Positions 6,101-55,723 of a DNA stretch of 64,000 nt are shown here, one piece after another. The DNA is from Squalus acanthias (lineage: Eukaryota), in NCBI GenBank assembly GCA_030390025.1, contig CM059431.1:135286001-135350000 (forward strand), in the 5' to 3' direction. The notes under the pieces were generated by a model, which was not told the DNA's origin, did not search any database, and saw nothing but the letters and a program-made list of their open reading frames with translations. A program made the translations under genes and the position numbers. Position 1 is the stretch's first letter; every line of letters begins with the position of its first letter.

Positions 6101-6843
6101 GGGCCGAAAATTGATCCCGGGACGCGAGAGTACGCACTGCGTACTCTCGCGTATTCCCACTCCAATTGCCGGTTTTCTGCATGCCCTGCGCATGCGCTGA
6201 AAACCGGCAATTGCTCTTCTGAAAAGGGGGCGGGGCCTGGGTGCATCGCGTGCGCGCTACAGGCTGCGCGCACGCTGTGCACTTCATGCTTTGGACGCGC
6301 AGGTAAGTAGGGAAGATTTTGGAAATGTAAAAAGGAGGAGTAAGACCCGCTTTTAAGAAGGTAAGTAGTGAATTAAGTATTTTTTTGAATTTTTTTTTAC
6401 AGGTATATCTTTTTTAGAGACTTTAAAGACAGGTAAGTTTATTTTAATAACTTTTTAAAAGATTTTAAATTTTTTCAAAAATTTAATTTTTTATTTAAAA
6501 TGGTTAATTTAATTAACTATACTTATTTTATTAATGTGATGGTTTTTTTTTTATTTAATTGAGGTTTAGCTGTTATTTTGGGGGGGGTGTAAGATTCATA
6601 GATTTCACAGCCATGCTGTGAGACTTATGAATGGAAGATGGTGTGCTGCCATTGGCTCTAACTGAGTCACGTGATCCCACAGCTCGCACGAATTCACTAC
6701 GCCGCTGGGATACGCAAGCCCAGCACAGCTGATGTCTGGAACATCAATTTCGTGCGAGCTGGATCAGAAAAAGCACAAGCGAGGTGAGACATCGCGGGGA
6801 AGGCTTACCCCCGCGGGAACAGAGCGAGATCAATTTCTGGGCC
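6101..6843 (+). mobile_element. PIF/Harbinger-type MITE, family A
   Basis: TIRs gggccgaaaattgatc / gatcaatttctgggcc; 3-bp TSD agt; closely similar reverse-oriented copies at 31392-32118 and 53392-54135. Confidence 0.9.
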
Positions 6844-9469: not shown

Positions 9470-10075
9470 CTCTCTCTCCCCCCCTGAACCTTTCCCCCAC
9501 CCCTCCGATTCTCTCTTTTACCCCTCAGATCCGCTCTCTCCCCCCCGCCGATTCCCTCTCGCTCTCCCCCCTCCGATTCCCTCTCTTTCCCACTCTCTCC
9601 CCTCCCCTCTGATCCTCTCTCCCCCTCCTCTCTCTCCTCCTCTCTCTCCCCCTCTGATCCTCTCTCTCACCCTCCTATTCCCTCTTTCTCCCCCCTCCAA
9701 TTCCCTCTCTTCCCCCCTCTGATTCCCTCTCTCTCCCCCTCTGATTCCCTCTCTCTCCCCCCTCTGATTCCCTCTCTCCCACCTCCTATTCCCTCTCTCT
9801 CCCCCCTCCAATTCCTGGTCTCTCTCCCTTTTCGATCCTTTCTCCCCCCTTCGATTCCCTCTCTCTCCCCCCTCCGATTTCCTCTCTCTCCCCCCTCTGA
9901 ATCCCTCTCTCTACCCCCTCCGATTCCCTCTATCTCTCCCCTCCGATTCCCTCTCTCTCTCCCCCTCTGATTCCCTCTCTCCCCCCTCCGATTCCCTCTC
10001 CCTCTCCCCCTCCGATTCCCTCTCTCCCCCCCCTCCGATTCCTGGTCTCTCTACCCTTTCGATCCTTTCTACCCC
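9470..10075. repeat. Pyrimidine-rich minisatellite (ccccctccgattccctctctct)n
   Basis: Units of about 20-24 bp, directly visible. Confidence 0.9.
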
Positions 10076-10267
10076 CGCACCCGTCCCTGTCCAGCACGGA
10101 TCCAGTGATGGGCCTTCTCCCACGGAGCTGAGGAAAGTGTGCCCTACTGCAGACCACAACTGTTGGGTACTGTGTATGCATGGCCTCGGTAAACAGAGCA
10201 CATGCGCAAAAGGGGATCAGGTGCACATGGGCGGCTCCGGGATTCCGCGCACATACATAGAAACGTT

Positions 10268-13200
10268 GGCCCAGAAATTAAACAGTGAGGGTTCCCGCGG
10301 GGGTAAGGAATTCCCGCGATATCGCACTCCGCGCCTACCTTTTTGCTCCGGGCCCACACGAACTTTAGTTTGAAAGGCTCTCTCTCTTGGAACCGTGCAG
10401 TGCTTGCGTGACCCAGAGACGCAATTAGTTCGTGCGAGCTCTGGGATCACGTGATTCAGTTGGAGCCAATGGCAGCACACCATCTTTCATTCATAGTTTT
10501 GACAGGAAGACCTGTCAAAGCTATGAATACTACACACCGCCAAAAGAACAGCTAAACCTCAATTAAATTTTTTTTTAAAAGCCATCACATTAATAAAATA
10601 AGTATAGTTAAATAAATTAACCACTTTAAACAAAAAATTAAATTTTTGAAACAATTTAAAATCTTTTTAAAAGTTATAAAAATAAACTTACCTTTCTTTA
10701 AAGTCTCTAAAAAAGATAAACCTGTTGAAAAAAGTTTAAAATAACACTTAATTAACTACTTACCTTGTTAAAAGGGGGTCCTACGCCTGCTTTCTTTATG
10801 TGTAAAATCTTCACCACTTACCTGCGCGTCTCCAATTCAGTATCCCGTCCCCGCCTTCTCTCCGTAACCCTTAACCCCTTTTGCCTGTAGAAATATATCT
10901 AATTCCCTCTTAAATATATTTAATGAGCTGGCGTACACAGCCCTCTGTGGCAATGAGTTCCACAGGTTCACCACCCTCTGAGTGAAGAAATTCCCCCTCA
11001 TTTCTGTCCTAAATGGTTTAGCCCTTATCCTTAAATTATGTCCTCTAGTTCTGTTCTCACCCGCCAAGGGAAACATTCCTTCTGCATCTAGTCTGTCTAG
11101 ACCTGTCAGAATTTTATACACTTCTATGAGGTCCCCTCTCAATCTTCTAAACTCCAGTGTGTACATCCCTAAACTACATAGTCTCTCCTCATAGGTCAAT
11201 CCCGCCATTCCTGGTATCAGCCTGGTGAATCGCCGCTGCACCCCCTCCATGGCAAGAACATCTTTCCTCAGATGAGGCGACCAAAACTGTACACAGTACT
11301 CGAGGTGTGGTCTCACCAGTGCCCTGTACAGCTGCAGCAAGGTATCCCTGTTCCTGTATTCCAACCCTTTTGCTATGAAGGCCAGCATACCGTTTGCCTT
11401 CTTGATCGCCTGTTGCACCTGCATGCTCGCCTTCAGTGACTGGTGTACAAGAACACCCAGGTCTCTCTGTACTTCCCCCTCTCCCAATTTATTGCCATTT
11501 AAATAATAATTTGCCCTCCCGTTCCTGCACCCAAGGTGGATAACTTCGCACTTGTCCACATTATAGTGCATCTGCCATTTATCCGCCCAATCACCCAGTC
11601 TGTCCAAATCGCTCTGGAGCTTCCTGGTCTCCTCCTCTGAGCCCACCCCCCCTCCTAGTTTAGTGTCGTCTGCAAATTTGGAAATGCTGCATCCGACTCC
11701 CTGATCCAGGTCATTAATGTAAATTGTGAACAGCTGGGGACCCAGGACAGATCCCTGCGGTACCCCACTTGTTACTGCCTGCCATTCAGAAAATGAGCCG
11801 TTTATTCCAACTCTCTGTTTTCTATCTGACAGCCAGTTCTCTATCCACGTCAATACTTTCCCCTTTATCCCATGAGCTTCAATTTTCCCTGCTAATCTTT
11901 TATGTGGGACCTTATCGAAGGCCTTTTGGAAGTCCAGGTACACCACATCTACTGGCTCTCCCCCATCTATTTTACCAGTTACTCCCTCAAAAAATTCCAA
12001 TAGATTAGTCAAGCACGATTTACCCTTTGTAAATCCATGTTGACTCTGTCCTATCCTGTCCCCATTTGCTAAGTGCTCCGCTATTTCATCCTTAATGATG
12101 GACTCCAGCATTTTGCCCACAACTGATGTAAGGCTTACAGGTCTGTAATTACCTGCTTTTTCCCTACCCCCCTTTTTGAATAGTGGGGTAACGTTAGCTA
12201 CCCTCCAATCCATGGGCACTGTTCCCGAGTCTAATGAATTCTGAAAAATCATACTTAGTGCATCCGCTATCTCTAGGGCCACCTCCTTCAGTACCCTAGG
12301 ATGCATGTTATCAGGCCCTGGGGATTTGTCCGCCTTCAATCCCTTTAGCTTCCTTAACACCATATCCTTAGAGATATTGATTTGCGTCAGTTCCTCCTTT
12401 GCAAATGTCCCTATTTTTCCCGATATCCCAGGGAGGTTTTTTGTGTCTTCCTTCGTAAAGACTGACCCAAAGTATGCATTTAGTTGGTCTGCCATTTCTT
12501 TATTTCCCGTTATATATTCCCCCGTATCTGACTGCAATGGGCCAACTTTGGTTTTCACCAGTCTTTTCCTCTTGATATACTTATAAAAGCTTTTGGAGTT
12601 AGTTTTTATATTTTCCGCCAGCTTGCTTTCGTAAGCTATTTTGCCCCTCTTGATTAAGCCCTTTGTCCTCCTTTGCTCTATCTTAAACTGTTCCCAATCT
12701 TCCGCTCTGGCGCTTTTTTTGGCTATTTTATACGCCCTATCTTTGGATTTTATGCTGTCTCTAATTTCCCCTGTTATCCACGGTTGAGTCACCTTTTTAG
12801 ATTTCCTTTTATGACAGATTGGTATAAACAATTTTTGCAATTTTGTCATTCTATCTTTAAATGCTTGCCATTGTTTATCTACCTCCAGTCCTCCCAGGAA
12901 CGTTGTCCAATCATACCTACTCAGTTCCCGTCTAATGGCATCATAATTCCCCTTGTTTAAATTCAGGACCTTAGTATCTGAGTCAATTTCTTCGCTCTCC
13001 ATTTCGAGTGAGAAATCGATCATGTTATGATCGCTCTGCCCCAAGGGTCCCCGCACAACAAGATTACTAATTAGTCCCTTCTCATTGCACAGTACCCAGT
13101 CCAATATAGCCTGTTCCCGAGTTGGTTCCTCGACATATTGATCCAGATAACCATCCCTTAAACACTCAAGGAATTCCTCCTCCTCATTATTTTTACTGAT

Positions 13201-13534
13201 TAGGCTATTCCAATCTATATGTAAGTTAAAGTCACCTATGATGACAGCTGTGCTCTTATTGCACGCTTCTCTAATTTCCCTCGTGATGCCCTCCCCAACC
13301 TCTATTTTACTATTTGGAGGCCTATATACCACAAAGCTGAAATAATAACTAAGTGCACTGCGTGCGCACAGCCTGTAGCGCGCACACGGTTCACTTAGGA
13401 ACCGCCCCCTTTTGAATTCACGAAGTGCCGGTTTCCCGCGCATGCGCAGTGCATGCAGGAAACCGGCAATTCGGGATCGAATACGCGAGAGTACACAGTG
13501 CGTACTCTCGCGTATTAGGTCTAATTTTCGGGCC
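10268..13534 (-). mobile_element. Composite TIR element: diverged family-A Harbinger MITE carrying a CR1 ORF2 segment
   Basis: TIRs ggcccagaaatta / taattttcgggcc. 10268-10830 and 13332-13534 are colinear with MITE copies 31392-32118 and 53392-54135. CR1 sequence fills 10831-13331. Confidence 0.88.
10837..13331 (-). CDS. Uninterrupted CR1 ORF2 segment: C-terminal part of APE endonuclease, complete RT and C-terminal domain (part of the 919-aa track ORF)
   Basis: VVYRPP, GDFN, SDHN, NYRPVSLTS, QHGF, DFQKAFD, GVPQGS, KFADD, RDLGV, native stop GTGY*. No stops or frameshifts. First in-frame Met inside the CR1 part is at 13023 (728 aa). Confidence 0.85.
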
Positions 13535-14710
13535 ATAGAAACATAGAAGATAGGAGCAGGAGTAGGCCATTCGGCCCCTCGAGCCTGCTCCGCCATTCGA
13601 TAAGATCATGGCTGATCATCCAAACTCAGTACCCTGTACCTGCCTTCTCCCCATATCCCTTGATACCTTTAGCTTTAAGAAATATATCTAACTCATTCTT
13701 GAATATATTTAATGACTTGGCCTCAACTACCTTCTGTGGTAGAGAATTCCACAGGTTCACCACTCTCTGGGTGAAGAAATTCTTCCTCATTTCTGTCCTA
13801 AATGGCTTACCCCTTATCCTTAGTTTATGACCCCTGGTTCTGGACTCTCCGACCATCGGGAACATTCTTCCTGCATCTAGTTTGTCCAGACCTGTCAGAA
13901 TTTTATATGTTTCGATGAGATCCCCTCTCATTCTTCTATACTCCAGCGAGTATAAGTCCAATTGACCCAATCTTTCCTCATATGTCATTCCTGCCATCCC
14001 AGGTATCAGCCTTGTGAATCTTCGCTGAACTCCTTCCATGGCAAGAACATCCTTCCTCAGATAAGGCGACCAAAACTGCACACAGTACTCAAGGTGTAGT
14101 CTCACCAAGGCCCTGTACAACTGCAGCAGGACATCCCTGTTCCTATACGCAAACCCTTTCGCTATGAAGGCCAACATACCATTTGCCTTCTTCACCGCCT
14201 GCTGCACCTGCATGCTTACCTTCAGCGACTGGTGCACAAGGACACCCAGGTCTCGTTGCACTTCCCCTTCTCCCAATCTATTGCCATTCAGATAATAGTC
14301 TGCCTTTCTGTTTTTGACACCAAAGTGGATAACCTCGCATTTATCCACATTATACTGCATCTGCCACGCTTCTGCCCACTCACCCAACCTGTCCAAATCA
14401 TCCTGGAGTTTCTCGGTATCCTCCTCGCTGCACACACGCCCCCCCAGCTTTGTGTCATCTGCAAACTTGGAGATATTACATTTAGTTCCCTTATCTAGAT
14501 CATTAATGTATATTGTGAATAGCTGGGGTCCAAGGACCGATCCCTGCGGTACCCCACTAGTCACTGCTTGCCACTCGGAAAAAGACCCATTAATTCCTAC
14601 TCTCTGTTTTCTGTCCGCCAACCAGTTCTCTATCCAAGTCAATACCTTGCCCCCAATCCCATGTGCCTTAACTTTACACGCTAATCTCTTATGCGGGACC
14701 TTATCGAAGG
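13535..14710 (-). mobile_element. 5'-truncated CR1 with open RT C-terminal half, 3' UTR and (gtttctat)n tail
   Basis: Track ORF 13626-14642; 3' UTR 13550-13625; tail atagaaacatagaag on the plus strand abutting the MITE TIR. Confidence 0.92.
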
Positions 14711-14769
14711 TTGCTTATACGCAGAAGGCCTCAAAAATGTTCGTGCAGTTAATCACTCTGATTGCTAAA

Positions 14770-30879: not shown

Positions 30880-33145
30880 AGTCTCCCATTATAACCAAGC
30901 TGCTTTTTCAACAAGCTTCTCTGATTTCCGTGCTTATGCATCATTACTGCTATCAGGAGGTCTGCAGACACCTCCCACCAAAGTCTTGCATCTTTTTCTA
31001 TTCATCAATTCTACCCAGAGAGCCTGCTCACCCTTCCTGATGCTGTAATAGTGAGCTTTATCAATATTGCTACTCCTCCTTATTTTCCAATTTCCCTATC
31101 CTTTCAAAAGACCTTATAAGCTGGAATATGTATCTCCCAGTCATGCCCAGCTTGCAGTCAAGTCTCAGTGATGGCCACTACGTTATACCCTTTAAGCTGA
31201 ATTTTGCACTTCTAATTCACTTGTTTTATTCCTATGCTACGAGCATTTGTGTATAGAACTCTTATTTGGGCTATAGACACTATCCTGCCCTTTTGCCCTG
31301 ATGCTGTTTTCCACACACTTTTTAACTCATTTTACATCAGTTATTTTTTATTATTTCCTATATTTTTTTCTGAACCGTAAGTATTTATATTGGCCCAGAA
31401 ATTGATCTCGCTCTGTTCCCGCGGGGGTAAGGAGCAGGCGCGATCTCTCACTCCGCGTTGGCTTTTTCAGATCCAGCTCGCACGAACTTGATGTTCCAGA
31501 CATCAGCTGGGCAGTGCTTGCGTATCCCACCGGCGTAGTGAATTCGTGCGAGCTGTGGGATCACGTGACTCAGTTAGAGCCAATGGCAGCACACCATCTT
31601 CCATTCATAAGTTTCACATAAGTGCTGTGAAAGCTATGAATCTTACACCCCCCCAAAATAACAGCTAAACCTCAATTAAATTTTTTTTAAAAACCATCAC
31701 ATTAATAAAATAAGTATAGTTAAATAAATTAACCATTTTAAATAAAAAATTAAATTTTTGTTAAAAAGTTATAAAAATAAACTTACCTGTCTTTAAAGTC
31801 TCTAAAAAAGATATACCTGTTAAAAAAAATTCAAAAAAATACTTAATTCACTACTTACCTTGTTAAAAGTGGGTCTTACTCCTCCTTTTTCCATTTCTAA
31901 AATCTTCCGTCCTTACCTGCGCGTCCAAAGCACTAAGTGCACAGCGTGCGCGCAGCCTGTAGCGCGCACGCGATGCACCGAGGAACCGCCCCCTTTTCCA
32001 AAGACCAAGTGCCGGTTTTCAGCGCATGCGCAGGGCATGCAGAAAACCGGCAATTGGAGAGAGAATACGCGAGAGTACGCAGTGTGTACTCTCGCGCAGC
32101 GGGATCAATTTTTGGCCCATTATCTTTAACACTATTTATGACCTGGACTTCACTCTCATCCCTTTTTTCTTATCTTTAGGCTATTTTTACTTTTATTATT
32201 ATTTCTGCCTGAGCCTCGCCTGCCCCTTTATTGGTTTAAAGTCCTTTCTAGAGTCCTATTTATCCTTTCAGCGAGGACCTTGGTCCCAGACCAAGTGCAG
32301 CCTGTCCCAGCAGTACAATTCCCTCCTGCCCCAGTAGTGGTGCCATTGTCTTGTGAAATGGAACCCTTTTTTTTCACACCAATCTTTCAGCCATGCATTC
32401 ACTTTCCTGATCTGTTTGTCCCTCTGCCAATTAGTACGTGGTTCGGGTAATATTTGTGAGATTTCTACCCCCGAGGTCCTAGCTCCTGATACTCTCTTAG
32501 CAGGATTTCCTTCCTGTTCTTTCCTATGTCGTTGATCCCGACATGGACTACGACAACAGGTTTTTCACCCTCCCTTTCCAGGCACTTTGAGATAGCCCTT
32601 ACCAGATAGCACCAGGTAGGCATCACATCTTTTGGGACTCTTGATCAAGGCTGCAGAAAATGCTATCCATTCCACTAATTATTAAATCCCCTATAGCTAC
32701 AAACTTTCTATTCTGATCCCCACCCCCTTGAACTGCCTGTAGCTCCATGATGCCTTGGTCAGCATTCTGGCTGTCCTTCCCACAGCTCTCCTTATCCTCA
32801 CAAGTAGCCAGTACATCGTACTTGTTGGACAGGACCAGATTCTGCGATTCCTCCTTCCCTGTCTCAACTAGATTCCTTTTACCCTGCTGACTGTCAGTCA
32901 CACACTCCTCGACCTGTACCTGCCTCTCTCTACTTGGTATAACTGTGTTCTGGAGTAAACTATCCAGATATTCCTCCTGCTCCCTTATGTGTCGTAGTGT
33001 CTCTAACTCACAGTCCAGCTCAATGACTCTGAGCTGGAGTGACTCAAGGCAGAGACATTTGTAATCGATGTGGTCATCCAGGACAGACTCGCTGTCGACA
33101 AATTCCCAAATTCTGCCGTCCTGACACACTCCCTGTGCTGTCATT
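30880..33145 (-). mobile_element. Old CR1 5' portion (ORF1 and start of endonuclease), interrupted by a MITE
   Basis: Track ORF 32623-33144 (zinc-finger-like, leucine heptads, AIGD); esterase and endonuclease remnants. Confidence 0.75.
31392..32118 (-). mobile_element. Harbinger-type MITE, family A
   Basis: TIR ggcccagaaattgatc / gatcaatttttggccc; TSD att. Confidence 0.92.
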
Positions 33146-51851: not shown

Positions 51852-52612
51852 GGGCTGTATTTTGAATGACCCATGGAGTCGGGTTTGGAGGCGTGTGGGG
51901 GGTTAGATTTGCGGGGTCGGGGTTTCCGACCCCATCCTGACTCCATCCCGCCTCCACGCAATTTTGACAAAATCAGTCACAGGGTTCCCGACTCCGTCCC
52001 GCCTCCAAGAGGCGGGAGAGGCCATTAAAGCCCTTAACAAGCCCTAAATTGGCTCTGTAATGCCATTTTGAAACGTTGTAGCTAGTTTAACCCTTTTCTG
52101 ACGTGAAGTACGCCTGGTGTGAAACACTCCAGTGAAACCTGGTGGGAGCACAAGTGGATAGCTGACTATGAGCTGCAGGTCCACTATTACAACGGAGATG
52201 TGATGAAGGTAGTAGTAGTAGTATGTCTGAAAGTCGCCTCTGATGCTGCTGCATTGAATGTGTTCAGAGACTGCCGGCCTTTGCTGTGCGAGGACTTGGA
52301 TGCAAACAATTTTTTCTCTCTCTCTCTCTCTGTCTCTCTCTCTCTCTCTCCTCACATCAGAAGCAATGCAGACAGGTCCTCTCTCACCAGTAGCCAGACA
52401 ATCTCTGAGAGCAGGCAGTCATCATTGCTGACATCATCAGAGGTGGGTTTCAGACTCAAACCACTAATTAGTTCATGGGTTCCCACATGCTGCAACTCAA
52501 TTGCCCAATTAAGTGAAAATTGCATCAGGCACCCACATTAATCTGGAGTCGGGGGGGAACACAAAATGCGGATTACAAGACCCCAACCCGACCCCAAGAC
52601 AAAATCCAGCCC
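51852..52612. mobile_element. Harbinger-type MITE
   Basis: TIR gggctgtattttg / caaaatccagccc; TSD ttt. Confidence 0.88.
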
Positions 52613-53391
52613 TTTGTGTCTGTCTTCACGGAAGAAGACGCAAAAAACCTCCTGGAAATAGTGGAGAACCAAGGGTCTAGCGAGAATGAGAAACTGAAAG
52701 AAATTAGTATTAGTAAAAAAGGAGTACTGGAGAAATTAATGGGACTGAAAGCCGATAAATCCAATGGACCTGATGGCCTACATCAAAGGGTTTTGAAAGA
52801 GGTGGCTATAGAGATAGTGGATGAATTGGTTGCCATCTTCCAAAATTCCATTGATTCTAGAATGCGGATTGAAAGGTAGCAAATGTAACCCCACTATTTA
52901 AGAAAGGAGGGAGAGAGAAAATGGGGAACTACAGACCAGTTAGCCTGACATCAGTAATAGGGAAAATGCTAGAATCTATTATTAAGGATGTTGTAACAGG
53001 GCACTTAGAAAATAATAATAGGATTGGGCAGAGTCAACACGGATTTATGAAAGGGAAATCATGTTTGACGAATCTGTTAGAGTTTTTTGAGGTTGTTACT
53101 AGCAGAATAGACAAGGGGGAACCAGTGGATGTGATGTATTTGGATATTCAGAAGGAATTCAATAAGGTGTCACACAAGAGGTTATTAAACAAAATTAGGG
53201 CTCATGGGATTGGGGGTAATATACAAGCATGGATTGAGGATTGGTTAACGGACAGAAAACAGAGCGTAGGAATAAACGGGTCATTTTCGGGTTAGCAGGC
53301 TGTAACTAGTGGGGTACCGCAAGGACCAGTGCCTGGGCCTCAGCTATTCACAATCTACATCAATGATTTGGATGAGGGGACCAAATGTAAT

Positions 53392-54135
53392 GGCCCAGAA
53401 ATTGATCTCGCTCTGTTCCCGCGGGGGTAAGGCTTCCCCGCGATCTCTCACTCCGCTTGTGCTTTTTCAGATCCAGCTCGCACGAACTTGATGTTCCAGA
53501 CATCAGCTGGGCAGTGCTTGCGTATCCCACCGGCGTAGTGAATTCGTGCGAGCTGTGGGATCACGTGACTCAGTTAGAGCCAATGGCAGCACACCATCTT
53601 CCATTCATAAGTTTCACATACGTGCTGTGAAATCTATGAATCTTACACCCCCCCAAAATAACAGCTAAACCTCAATTAAATTTTTTTTAAAAAACCATCA
53701 CATTAATAAAATAAGTATAGTTAAATAAATTAACCATTTTAAATAAAAAATTAAATTTTTGAAAAAATTTAAAATCTTTTAAAAAGTTATAAAAATAAAC
53801 TCACCTGTCTTTAAAGTCTCTAAAAAAGATATACCTGTTAAAAAAAAATCAAAAAAATACTTAATTCACTACTTACCTTGTTAAAAGTGGGTCTTACTCC
53901 TCCTTTTTCCATTTCTAAAATCTTCCGTACTTACCTGCGTGTCCAAAGCATGAAGTGCACAGCGTGCGCGCAGCCTGTAGCGCGCACGCGATGCACCGAG
54001 GAACCGCCCCTTTTCAAAAGAGCAATTGCCGGTTTTCAGCGCATGCGCAGGGCATGCAGAAAACCGGCAATTGGAGTGGGAATACGCGAGAGTACGCAGT
54101 GCGTACTCTCGCGTCGCGGGATCAATTTCTGGGCC
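53392..54135 (-). mobile_element. Harbinger-type MITE, family A
   Basis: Perfect 16-bp TIR ggcccagaaattgatc; TSD aat; removing it restores the CR1 sequence tgtaatatatcc. Confidence 0.95.
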
Positions 54136-55723
54136 AATATATCCAAGTTTGCTGATGATACAAATCTAGGTGGGAATGTAAGTTGTGAGGAGGATGCAAA
54201 GAGGCTTCAAGGGGATATAGACAAGCTAAGTGAGTGGGCAAGAACATGGCAAATGGAATATAATGTGGAGAAATGTGAAGTTATCCACTTTGGTAGGAAA
54301 AATAGAAAAGCAGAGTATTTTTTAAATGGTGAGAGATTGGGAAAAGTTAGTGGTCAGAGGGACCTGGGTGTCCTTGTACATGAATCACTGAAAGTTAACA
54401 TGCAGGTACAGCAAGCAATTAGGAAAGCAAATGGTATGTTGGCCTTTATTACAAGAGGATTTGATATAAGAGTAAAGACGTCTTACTGCAATTGTATAGG
54501 GCTCTGGTGAGACCACACCTGGAGTATTGTGTACAGTTTTGGTCTCCTTACCTAAGGAAGGATATACTTGCCATAGAGGGAGCTCAATGAAGGTTCACCA
54601 GACTGATTCCTGGGATGGGGCGATTGTCCTGTGAGGAGAGATTGAGTAGACTAGGCCTATATTCTCTGGAGTTTAGAAGAATGAGAGGTGATCTCATTGA
54701 AACATACAAAATTCTTACAGGGCTTGACAGGGTAGATGCAGGGAGGATGTTTCCCCTGGCTGGGGAGTCTAGAACCAGGGTCACAGTCTCAGAATAAGGG
54801 GTCGGCCATTTAGGACTGAGATGAGGAGAAATTTTTTCATTCAGAGGGTGGTGAATCTTTGAAATTCTCTACCCCAGAGGGCTGTGGAGGCTCAGTCGTT
54901 GAGTATATTCAAGGCTGAAATCGATAGATTTTTGGATTATAAGGGAATCAAGGGATGCGGCTCGGCTCTCCCTAAAGAATCTGGTGTCCGCGGGGGGAGA
55001 AGAGGCGGGAGCGGGGTGCGGGGTAAGTGTAAGTACTCCAAAGAAAGACGGGGAGTTGGACATCTCGAAGAGCAGAAGGGGGCAAGACAAGGAGAGGTTG
55101 CAAGAGGCAGCAGGACGGGAGCTGGGAGACAAAGACACCAGAAGGGAGCAGGATAGGTGCAGGTGCGCCATTGTCCCAGAGAGAGAAGAAACAGGGAGCA
55201 AGGATCAACGGTAAAGATGAGGCCGAAGGGAGTAGCACTGTTGGAGAAACCGTGATAGCAGGAAGACTCTCTAAGGGATATTATGTATCTGACGGGGAGC
55301 AGGGACGGGAAGTTACAGAAGAGCTCGAGAGTGAGGGGGCAGAGGGGGACAGAGACATGGAAGTGGGGGGGTAGGGTGGGGTGGCATCGTGTGGAAAGGG
55401 AAAGGTTAGTGAGGGGCAGAAGGAGGGAGAAGGAGCAGATCCTCGGCCCAAACCTAATGTAAGGAAGAGGCTGAAACTGCAGGGAGAGTTCAAACAGGAG
55501 GTGAAAAAGAGCCAGAGGCTGCAGGAGAAAGTAACAGCTGCCCAAAAAGTTGGGAAGGAGCATGAGAGGAGGGAAGGGCCGGAGTTTAAATGATGGGGGG
55601 ATTATCAAGCACACTTCCCTTATTCGGAGCCATGATTACATTGATCTTGATTGATGTGAATGGACTGAGTGATGAGAAGACATTGTAGCAGTTGTTGTAG
55701 TGTTTTAAAGGCACTGACTTGTT

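Follow-up and report, generated by a model that had tools for sequence, protein, structure and literature searches.

A CR1 fragment truncated at both ends inside a MITE copy of Squalus acanthias: a possible single, non-canonical insertion

To our knowledge, canonical target-primed reverse transcription (TPRT) always retains the 3' end of a LINE. Morrish and colleagues are said to have described, in 2002, endonuclease-independent insertions of L1 at DNA breaks. Among class II elements, the textbook TSD of PIF/Harbinger MITEs is TAA or TTA. For human endonuclease-independent L1 loci, Sen et al. (2007, PMC1920257) give target deletions in 18 of 21 cases. Pack-type elements, encompassing Pack-MULE and Pack-TYPE elements (PMC8903248) and Turmoil-1 of C. 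elegans (PMC2572040), are characterized by foreign coding sequence between the TIRs of a non-autonomous DNA transposon, an arrangement that recurs at the locus described here. We found no endonuclease-independent CR1 insertion in the literature by title or abstract, and do not claim that none is in print.

We analyzed a 64,000-nt stretch of Squalus acanthias DNA (assembly GCA_030390025.1, contig CM059431.1, positions 135,286,001 to 135,350,000; hereafter the window), in which a CR1 piece truncated at both ends lies inside an older MITE, constituting a single-locus nested insertion (Table 1). A preliminary description of this DNA had proposed that the TIR element at 10268-13534 is colinear with three shorter MITE copies of the window, and this was confirmed, with identities of 79-86% and the copy at 6101-6843 in the opposite orientation. 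The palindrome, the GC box, the splice-donor-like motif and the first in-frame methionine of the CR1 part (13023, giving 728 aa) were also located where they had been placed. The CR1 piece begins mid-endonuclease and ends 6-8 nt past its stop codon. Its domains, as identified with Pfam, are RVT_1 (E 1.8e-31) and the C-terminal part only of Exo_endo_phos_2 (E 4.9e-10, residues 2-105). The 922-aa frame that runs into it contains 831 CR1 codons (10840-13332), in agreement with the approximately 830 reported earlier, and an in-frame ATG at 13443, inside the palindrome of the shell, opens an 868-codon chimeric frame. The shell itself lies inside or adjoins the 3' UTR and microsatellite tail of the older CR1 copy at 13535..14714. 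The reverse nesting, of a MITE (53392-54114) in a CR1, is also seen in the window.

Table 1. Positions of the nested locus, its component features and related repeats, numbered along the window.
Feature	Position	Strand	Remarks
MITE shell with CR1 insert	10268-13534	sense on minus strand	765-bp TIR element without insert
5' arm of shell (element sense)	13332..13534	(-)	TIR starting GGCCC, subterminal hairpin, palindrome, GC box
TGCGCATGCGC palindrome	13448-13438	(-)	in 5' arm of shell
GC box GGGGCGG	13408-13402	(-)	in 5' arm of shell
CR1 ORF2 piece	10829..13331	(-)	endonuclease C-terminal part, RT, C-terminal region, stop, 6-8 nt of 3' UTR
CR1 piece stop codon	10839-10837	(-)	
3' arm of shell	10268..10828	(-)	three AGGTAAGT motifs, AT-rich core, terminal TIR
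AGGTAAGT motifs	10823-10816, 10765-10758, 10693-10686	(-)	splice-donor-like, 3' arm of shell
CAGGTAAGT splice-donor-like motif	10824-10816	(-)	3' arm of shell
Stop-to-stop open frame, 922 codons	10837..13605	(-)	from flank and shell into CR1 piece
Older CR1 copy	13535..14714	(-)	81% identical to young CR1 piece
Empty MITE copy, different subfamily	6101..6843	(+)	79-81% identical to shell
Empty MITE copy, different subfamily	31392..32096	(-)	79-86% identical to shell
Empty MITE copy, different subfamily	53392..54114	(-)	inside another, older CR1 (52612-53378 and 54139-54931)

On either side of the insert, the shell aligns colinearly with each of the 29 empty copies compared, and the pre-insertion site was reconstructed from these paralogous MITE copies rather than from an orthologous empty allele. 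At this site, all 29 of the closest empty copies from the shell's subfamily have ...GCTTTG-AA-CGCGCAGG and not ...GCTTTG-GA-CGCG, so that the CR1 piece most likely extends over 10829/10830-13331 and ends 7-8 nt past the stop codon, the bases at 10829-10830 being ambiguous between CR1 and shell. This result shifts the boundary proposed earlier, which set the insert exactly between gctttg and gacgcgcag, while the accompanying claim that it lacks a TSD stands: comparison of the junctions with the empty MITE copies revealed no TSD around the piece. Relative to these paralogous copies, 1-2 nt of target were lost, and each junction shows a microhomology of at most 1 nt and no filler. For a CR1, the missing TSD carries little weight, as the TSDs of free copies with both flanks (n=5) are also short or unclear.

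The 3' end of the piece was examined against the free copies of its family. All 12 free copies inspected have, beyond the stop codon, a 3' UTR of approximately 89 nt and a (ATGTATCT)n-type tail, and the piece lacks some 81-83 nt of this UTR and the entire microsatellite tail. The earlier account of an ORF2 that starts mid-endonuclease and misses both 3' UTR and tail is borne out by this comparison; the missing 3' parts and the clean junctions also uphold its contention that the piece does not derive from canonical CR1 retrotransposition. The locus resembles endonuclease-independent L1 insertions, as described in PMC1920257, in involving a young LINE that is 3'-truncated and has neither tail nor TSD, and in its clean, low-microhomology junctions and linear, non-inverted insert; three of the four features by which such insertions are recognized there (3' truncation, no TSD, no tail) are present, the fourth concerning a target unlike the cleavage preference of the element's endonuclease. 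It differs from the L1 loci of that study in that only 1-2 nt of target were lost.

The same anatomy could in principle result from ordinary TPRT of a 5'-truncated CR1 followed by deletion of exactly the UTR and tail. Truncation at the 5' end is normal in the free CR1 family, and the presumed deletion would have had the same one or two bases (A or GA) on each side. Such a deletion, however, must have stopped exactly at the boundary between the insert and a MITE that is colinear with every empty copy, and must have occurred in the little time that an insert with one near-private change has existed, making this sequence of events improbable. This reasoning is also applied in PMC1920257 against TPRT followed by deletion for L1.

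The tail type and domain content indicate that the insert is probably a CR1-clade LINE. Many CR1-clade elements carry an esterase (GDSL/SGNH) domain in ORF1, and the ORF1 of one free copy, which lies outside the piece, encodes an intact GDSL esterase domain (Lipase_GDSL_2, E 2.3e-10). When compared with 41 free CR1 copies, five of them spanning the entire piece and 36 covering parts of it, the piece showed identities of 98.97-99.95% (median 99.55%). The five full-length comparisons gave mismatch counts of 1, 3, 4, 7 and 9 in 2501 nt, the nearest copy, with its single mismatch, being located on another contig. Only one of the 2501 positions of the piece is near-private, and this change, at 10939, affects the third position of an Ala codon and is uninformative for dN/dS. 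Over 2132 nt the piece has no singletons, whereas 29 free copies, among which the nearest are over-represented, have 0 to 9 (median 2).

Among the free copies, 5' truncation occurs at a wide variety of points; free copies also carry a complete N-terminal endonuclease, and three of them have a full open ORF2 of 988 codons; judging from these sequences, the family looks currently or very recently active. The open frame of the piece reflects its youth, not selection, because the free copies carry this 988-codon open ORF2; where cargo and active free copies share 99.9% identity, an uninterrupted ORF inside a transposon shell does not argue for selection. The locus is like ordinary LINE-into-MITE nesting in that a younger element lies in an older one within a repeat-dense region, and unlike it in that the inserted LINE has lost the 3' end that all 12 free copies keep.

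The shell had been regarded as a distinct, diverged MITE subfamily, which holds true only with respect to the three in-window copies. In the genome, its subfamily is abundant (1956 first-look candidates in a genome search), and the median identity between the shell and 26 of its empty members is 96.7%; the 5' arm is 95-97% identical to empty copies from this subfamily. The shell is an ordinary copy of a PIF/Harbinger-derived MITE subfamily. Its nucleotides 1-116, or part of them, were found in 11 of 12 transposase loci, approximately 1.2 kb upstream of the DDE domain and in the same orientation, and a 382-aa ORF scores as DDE_Tnp_4 (E 2.1e-43). Open-frame transposase genes of Harbinger occur in very large numbers: all 150 scored hits, the best of 63,886 first-look candidates, exceeded the Pfam cut-off.

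The GGCC-type TIRs of the shell, the 3-nt AT-rich duplications of its family and the terminal 116 nt common to DDE_Tnp_4-encoding elements all recall Tourist-like PIF/Harbinger MITEs. Identical 3-nt flanks were seen in 20 of the 26 empty copies, mostly AAT or ATT, unlike the textbook TAA or TTA; at the chimeric locus the flanks are GTT and ATA (+ strand), and no 3-nt TSD of the shell was found under several boundary choices. A further difference from Tourist-like MITEs is the shell interior, which has promoter-like and three splice-donor-like motifs. These are family-wide, present in 22/29, 25/29 and 27/29 copies, and partly common to the autonomous Harbinger 5' end, suggesting that they belong to the MITE family and do not constitute a new expression unit. 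Near-private positions amount to 9 of 765 in the shell versus 1 of 2501 in the insert (Fisher p = 1.6e-5), and divergence from the respective family is about 30 times greater for the shell than for the insert. On these values the shell is much older than its cargo, so the piece entered a MITE copy that was already resident rather than one in the course of transposing.

Pattern scans of the window's own 3.7-Gb assembly, on which the uniqueness of the locus rests, returned one match for the 5' junction 30-mer and one for the 3' junction 30-mer (at most 2 mismatches), with no matches for either control pattern. In DNA similarity searches, which score the best candidates only and yield counts that are lower bounds, an 81-nt query detected the junction in 1 of 13 scored places, the other 12 matching the CR1 part only, and a 111-nt query in 1 of 40, the other 39 matching the MITE part only. 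No second locus with either junction 30-mer was found in the assembly that would indicate mobilization after acquisition. The preliminary description had entertained both a one-off passenger and a spreading class II element with an endonuclease-less RT, and had named junctions restricted to this locus and near-identity to an active free CR1 family as two of the three outcomes that would count against the latter. Both were obtained, the first in the pattern scans and the second in the single mismatch over 2501 nt; the one-off passenger fits these results and the spreading element does not.

On these sequence comparisons, the spreading of a Pack-type element appears largely refuted, and it is exceedingly unlikely that the RT was captured during transposition in a chimeric class II element that is Harbinger-mobilized and expresses an endonuclease-less RT from the MITE leader. 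Such an element could draw on intact TIRs, on the abundant open-frame Harbinger transposase genes, on an insert lying in sense downstream of family-conserved promoter-like motifs and on the in-frame ATG at 13443. Against it stand the unique junctions, a shell far older than its cargo, the lack of the 3-nt TSD found in most empty copies, the generic nature of the promoter-like motifs, an open frame accounted for by age, and a length of 3.27 kb, more than four times that of its mobile relatives. The locus is also unlike the Pack-type elements of PMC8903248 and PMC2572040 in that it is single-copy, lacks a TSD, has a cargo much younger than its shell and carries a transposon fragment instead of a host gene.

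Errors of assembly such as collapse or mis-joining arise within homology. A chimeric join of repeat-containing reads must be considered in a region built of high-copy repeats, and in four Logan contig runs neither junction was bridged by an independent contig among the approximately 32 pieces listed of approximately 23,900. Unlike such errors, the two junctions here are independent and non-homologous, each with no more than 1 nt in common, and between them they leave one contiguous MITE copy that is exact or off by 1-2 nt; furthermore, both arms come from one subfamily, and the CR1 piece is in frame and colinear. We consider an artefact very unlikely. A joint of 10827 to 13332 in one DNA run, the shorter side of which is only 28 nt, reads as another empty MITE copy and not as an empty allele of the chimeric locus.

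In two runs guessed to be RNA, contigs proceed from 13332 into sequence upstream in free CR1 copies, and because of this continuation they derive from free copies. It is highly doubtful that the chimeric locus is transcribed from the Harbinger-derived leader to give an endonuclease-less CR1 RT (868 aa from 13443 or 728 aa from 13023); if true, a free-standing, lineage-specific RT gene would have arisen very recently, and the locus would also be the first tail-less insertion of break-repair type on record for a CR1-clade LINE.

With moderate confidence, we favor a one-time, non-canonical insertion that took place recently at a break and was either endonuclease-independent or internally primed. 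Alongside the observed anatomy, uniqueness, relative ages and family identities of the locus, we infer a break, an RNA intermediate and internal priming. A PIF/Harbinger-derived MITE copy would have long resided in or beside the tail of an old CR1 before a recent DNA break occurred in the region derived from the MITE 5' leader, 15 nt upstream of a GTAAGT motif, and was sealed by 2.5 kb copied from a CR1 family that is active now or was so until very recently. The template was most likely CR1 RNA: the exposed target 3' end (...GCGCGT-3', window + strand) may have primed reverse transcription inside the RNA, just past the stop codon and not at the 3' UTR or microsatellite tail; synthesis would then have halted mid-endonuclease, and the cDNA would have been joined to the opposite side of the break, where microhomology does not exceed 1 nt. 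The outcome would resemble the 3'-truncated, endonuclease-independent insertions of L1 known from mammals, except that the LINE here is a CR1. Tail-less priming by it would be unusual, since CR1-type RTs are generally considered to require their own 3' UTR, and CR1-clade LINEs to begin reverse transcription strictly from this UTR and the tail.

An RNA-mediated insert would be indistinguishable from a young genomic CR1 copied as DNA and joined to the break ends. We regard such a one-off, DNA-level capture, in which a break in the resident MITE was repaired with a genomic CR1 stretch by template switching or end joining and no RNA was involved, as possible but rather unlikely. The piece begins and ends within CR1, the low microhomology and lack of filler fit end joining, and near-identical genomic donors exist, including the copy on another contig. 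The 0-1 private differences, however, befit a fresh product of the active lineage, unlike an average genomic copy, and no donor flank is present in the insert; neither point is decisive.

The locus has little bearing on genome function, being one young nested repeat among many. The integration route could be endonuclease-independent, internally primed or mediated by break repair, and the value of the finding is modest and mechanistic, in suggesting that non-canonical integration also occurs for the CR1 clade in a cartilaginous fish.

Rechecking of the positions on the sequence upheld the preliminary description of a chimeric structure as accurate, together with its motif coordinates, the splice-donor-like site 15 nt past the CR1 stop codon and the internal methionine codon at 13023 (728 aa). 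The CR1 stretch forms a single open frame; the stop-to-stop frame spans 10837-13605 (922 codons), of which the CR1 share is 831 codons (10840-13332), and an in-frame ATG at 13443, within the palindrome and new to the list of features, opens an 868-codon chimeric frame. Pfam searches identified RVT_1 (E 1.8e-31) in the CR1 piece and, for the endonuclease, the C-terminal part only (Exo_endo_phos_2, E 4.9e-10).

Features of the chimeric element, a CR1 piece within a MITE shell
Feature	Position	Strand	Remarks
Whole chimeric element	13534 to 10268	minus	5'-to-3' order: TIR, hairpin, palindrome, GC box, leader, CR1, rest of MITE
Terminal inverted repeat (TIR)	5' end, element sense	minus	first bases GGCCC
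Subterminal hairpin	after TIR, 5' arm	minus	
Palindrome TGCGCATGCGC	13448-13438	minus	
GC box	13408-13402	minus	
Leader	between GC box and CR1 stretch	minus	about 70 nt
CR1 ORF2 stretch	between two MITE arms	minus	2.5 kb
MITE remainder		minus	three AGGTAAGT motifs (10816-10823, 10758-10765, 10686-10693), AT-rich core, second inverted repeat

The piece belongs to a CR1 family whose free copies, those outside the MITE, are common: a 632-nt query returned 143 first-look candidates, and the 40 matches that were scored, the chimeric locus itself included, all showed 99-100% identity. Free copies vary widely in where their 5' truncation falls, and they extend 1.4-1.5 kb or more upstream of the start of the piece; ORF1 of the family carries a GDSL esterase domain, and three copies have an open ORF2 of 988 codons. 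In 12 of 12 free copies examined, the stop codon is followed by a 3' UTR of ~89 nt ending in a (ATGTATCT)n-type tail. The piece differs from five free copies read over full length at 1, 3, 4, 7 and 9 of 2501 positions, its identity to 41 free copies covering all or part of it is 98.97-99.95% (median 99.55%), and across 2132 nt it carries no singletons, compared with a median of 2 (range 0-9) among 29 free copies, a sample biased towards the closest ones. An open frame of 830 codons is expected of so young a copy and is uninformative on selection. One 5'-truncated free copy (L044) is embedded at its upstream flank (C315) in a tandem repeat of ~67-nt period, with periodic BLAST hits, and the same repeat flanks another copy (L057). 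Public sequencing runs X6-X13 and X15, with labels of five other organisms (B-F) among them, contained a share of 0.75-0.77 of the 31-mers sampled from the stretch, roughly the CR1 share, and this young family may thus have near-identical copies in other taxa or samples.

The junctions were compared with the free copies and with 29 empty MITEs of the same subfamily. Free copies run from GGAG into TGGTATATAGG where the piece starts, and from TGAATTGGAGA into ATCAGCC past the stop; the empty MITEs read CAGCTTTG-AA-CGCGCAGGTAAGT at the site in 29 of 29 cases, and the chimeric locus reads CAGCTTTG/TGGTAT...AATTGGAGA/CGCGCAGG. The piece thus ends 7-8 nt past the stop codon, rather than the 6 nt first read from an in-window subfamily that has GGACGCG there, and the target lost 1-2 bases. 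Consistent with the original reading, this comparison revealed no target duplication at the junctions of the piece, and microhomology is at most 1 base at each. Searched with up to 2 mismatches, each junction 30-mer occurred once in the 3.7-Gb assembly (control pattern, zero), and looser DNA searches found a junction at one of the 13 places scored with one query and at one of the 40 scored with the other. Among contigs of public runs, which are short and of high-copy repeats, none of the pieces listed bridges a junction, and those listed from two presumed RNA runs derive from free CR1 copies. Misassembly is very improbable as the source of the chimera, because two non-homologous junctions rebuild one colinear MITE.

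The shell had been taken for a distinct, diverged subfamily. This holds against the in-window copies (6101-6843, 31392-32096 and 53392-54114), which share only 79-86% identity with its arms, but not genome-wide, where a closer, large subfamily is present (1956 first-look candidates with a junction-spanning 111-nt query). Both arms are 92-97.5% identical to fetched empty copies, and against 26 empty copies the shell has a median identity of 96.7%, equal to what these copies show among themselves (96.6%). The shell is thus one unremarkable representative of an abundant family; a special lineage was rejected on this basis. Identical 3-nt duplications, mostly AAT or ATT, flank 20 of the 26 empty copies. 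Such a duplication is absent at the carrier copy (+ strand GTT at 10265-10267 versus ATA at 13535-13537), which has three extra bases (AAC, element sense) adjoining one end and is located in, or adjacent to, the (ATGTTTCT)n microsatellite tail of an older CR1 (13535 to at least 14714). Reverse nesting also occurs in the window, where the MITE at 53392-54114 splits an older CR1 into halves (52612-53378 and 54139-54931) with 72-74% identity to the young piece. Elsewhere, a low-complexity purine-rich repeat (9488-10050) presents long Gly/Arg/Glu-rich pseudo-ORFs on both strands and no Pfam match.

A genome-wide search for PF13359, the Harbinger transposase domain, returned 63,886 first-look candidates; the 150 matches that were scored all exceed the Pfam cut-off, most of them in stop-free open frames of about 385-391 codons. 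Of 12 fetched loci (L081-L092), 11 carry all or part of shell nt 1-116, which contain the inverted repeat, the hairpin and the palindrome, in matching orientation and ~1.2 kb upstream of the DDE domain. A 382-aa ORF at a Harbinger locus matches DDE_Tnp_4 (E 2.1e-43). Termini common to DDE_Tnp_4-coding loci, together with the 3-nt duplications, identify the shell as a PIF/Harbinger-derived MITE, whose promoter-like 5' part is, partly if not wholly, the autonomous element's own 5' end. The abundance of the transposase and its open frames suggest that the autonomous family is recently or currently active and could mobilise MITEs.

Near-private positions (base in <10% of other copies) number 9 of 765 in the shell, by comparison with a sample of 26 MITE copies from among thousands, versus 1 of 2501 in the insert (Fisher p = 1.6e-5). 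Under similar neutral rates, the MITE would have been resident long before the piece arrived, which argues against acquisition during its own transposition; this age gap and the unique junctions argue against any later mobilisation. The earlier proposal of a spreading, RT-carrying class II element is contradicted by the same two observations, and a functional or mobile Pack-type chimera is the least probable reading of the locus, whereas the one-off passenger offered beside it fits a single nested insertion.

Canonical target-primed reverse transcription retains the LINE 3' end, and the piece, without the CR1 3' UTR and tail, is a genuinely non-canonical insertion. Target-primed insertion followed by deletion of the 3' end is improbable, since the deletion must stop exactly at the boundary between insert and MITE within the short life of the insert, an argument also used by Sen et al. 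for L1 (PMC1920257). Their account of endonuclease-independent L1 insertions uses four criteria, one of them an atypical target site; the other three, namely 3' truncation and the absence of both a tail and a TSD, are seen here. The non-canonical structure and these three likenesses favour, with roughly even confidence, an RNA-mediated event with internal priming and 5' end-joining: a break or nick in the resident MITE would expose a target 3' end, which would prime reverse transcription on CR1 RNA a short way past the stop codon, and end joining would then attach the 5' side of the cDNA. Capture of a fragment of genomic CR1 DNA at a break, which would produce an identical scar, is a possible but less likely origin; the very low private-difference count favours a fresh product of the active lineage only mildly. 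We conclude that an old MITE here received, once and recently, a nested fragment of an active LINE, which makes the locus a further case of a known event type and not a new kind of mobile element.

The promoter-like and donor-like motifs are family-wide, TGCGCATGCGC being conserved in 22, GGGGCGG in 25 and CAGGTAAGT in 27 of 29 MITE copies. The palindrome, which adjoins a conserved ~37-nt hairpin and is conserved between the MITE subfamily and the autonomous Harbinger, where it lies in the 5' subterminal region (L087:330-341), may act as a promoter element or as a binding site for the transposase or its Myb partner. The three consensus splice-donor-like AGGTAAGT motifs fall inside a 140-nt part of the MITE interior, 27 of 29 copies retaining the first, and thousands of MITE copies could supply cryptic splice donors to host transcripts.
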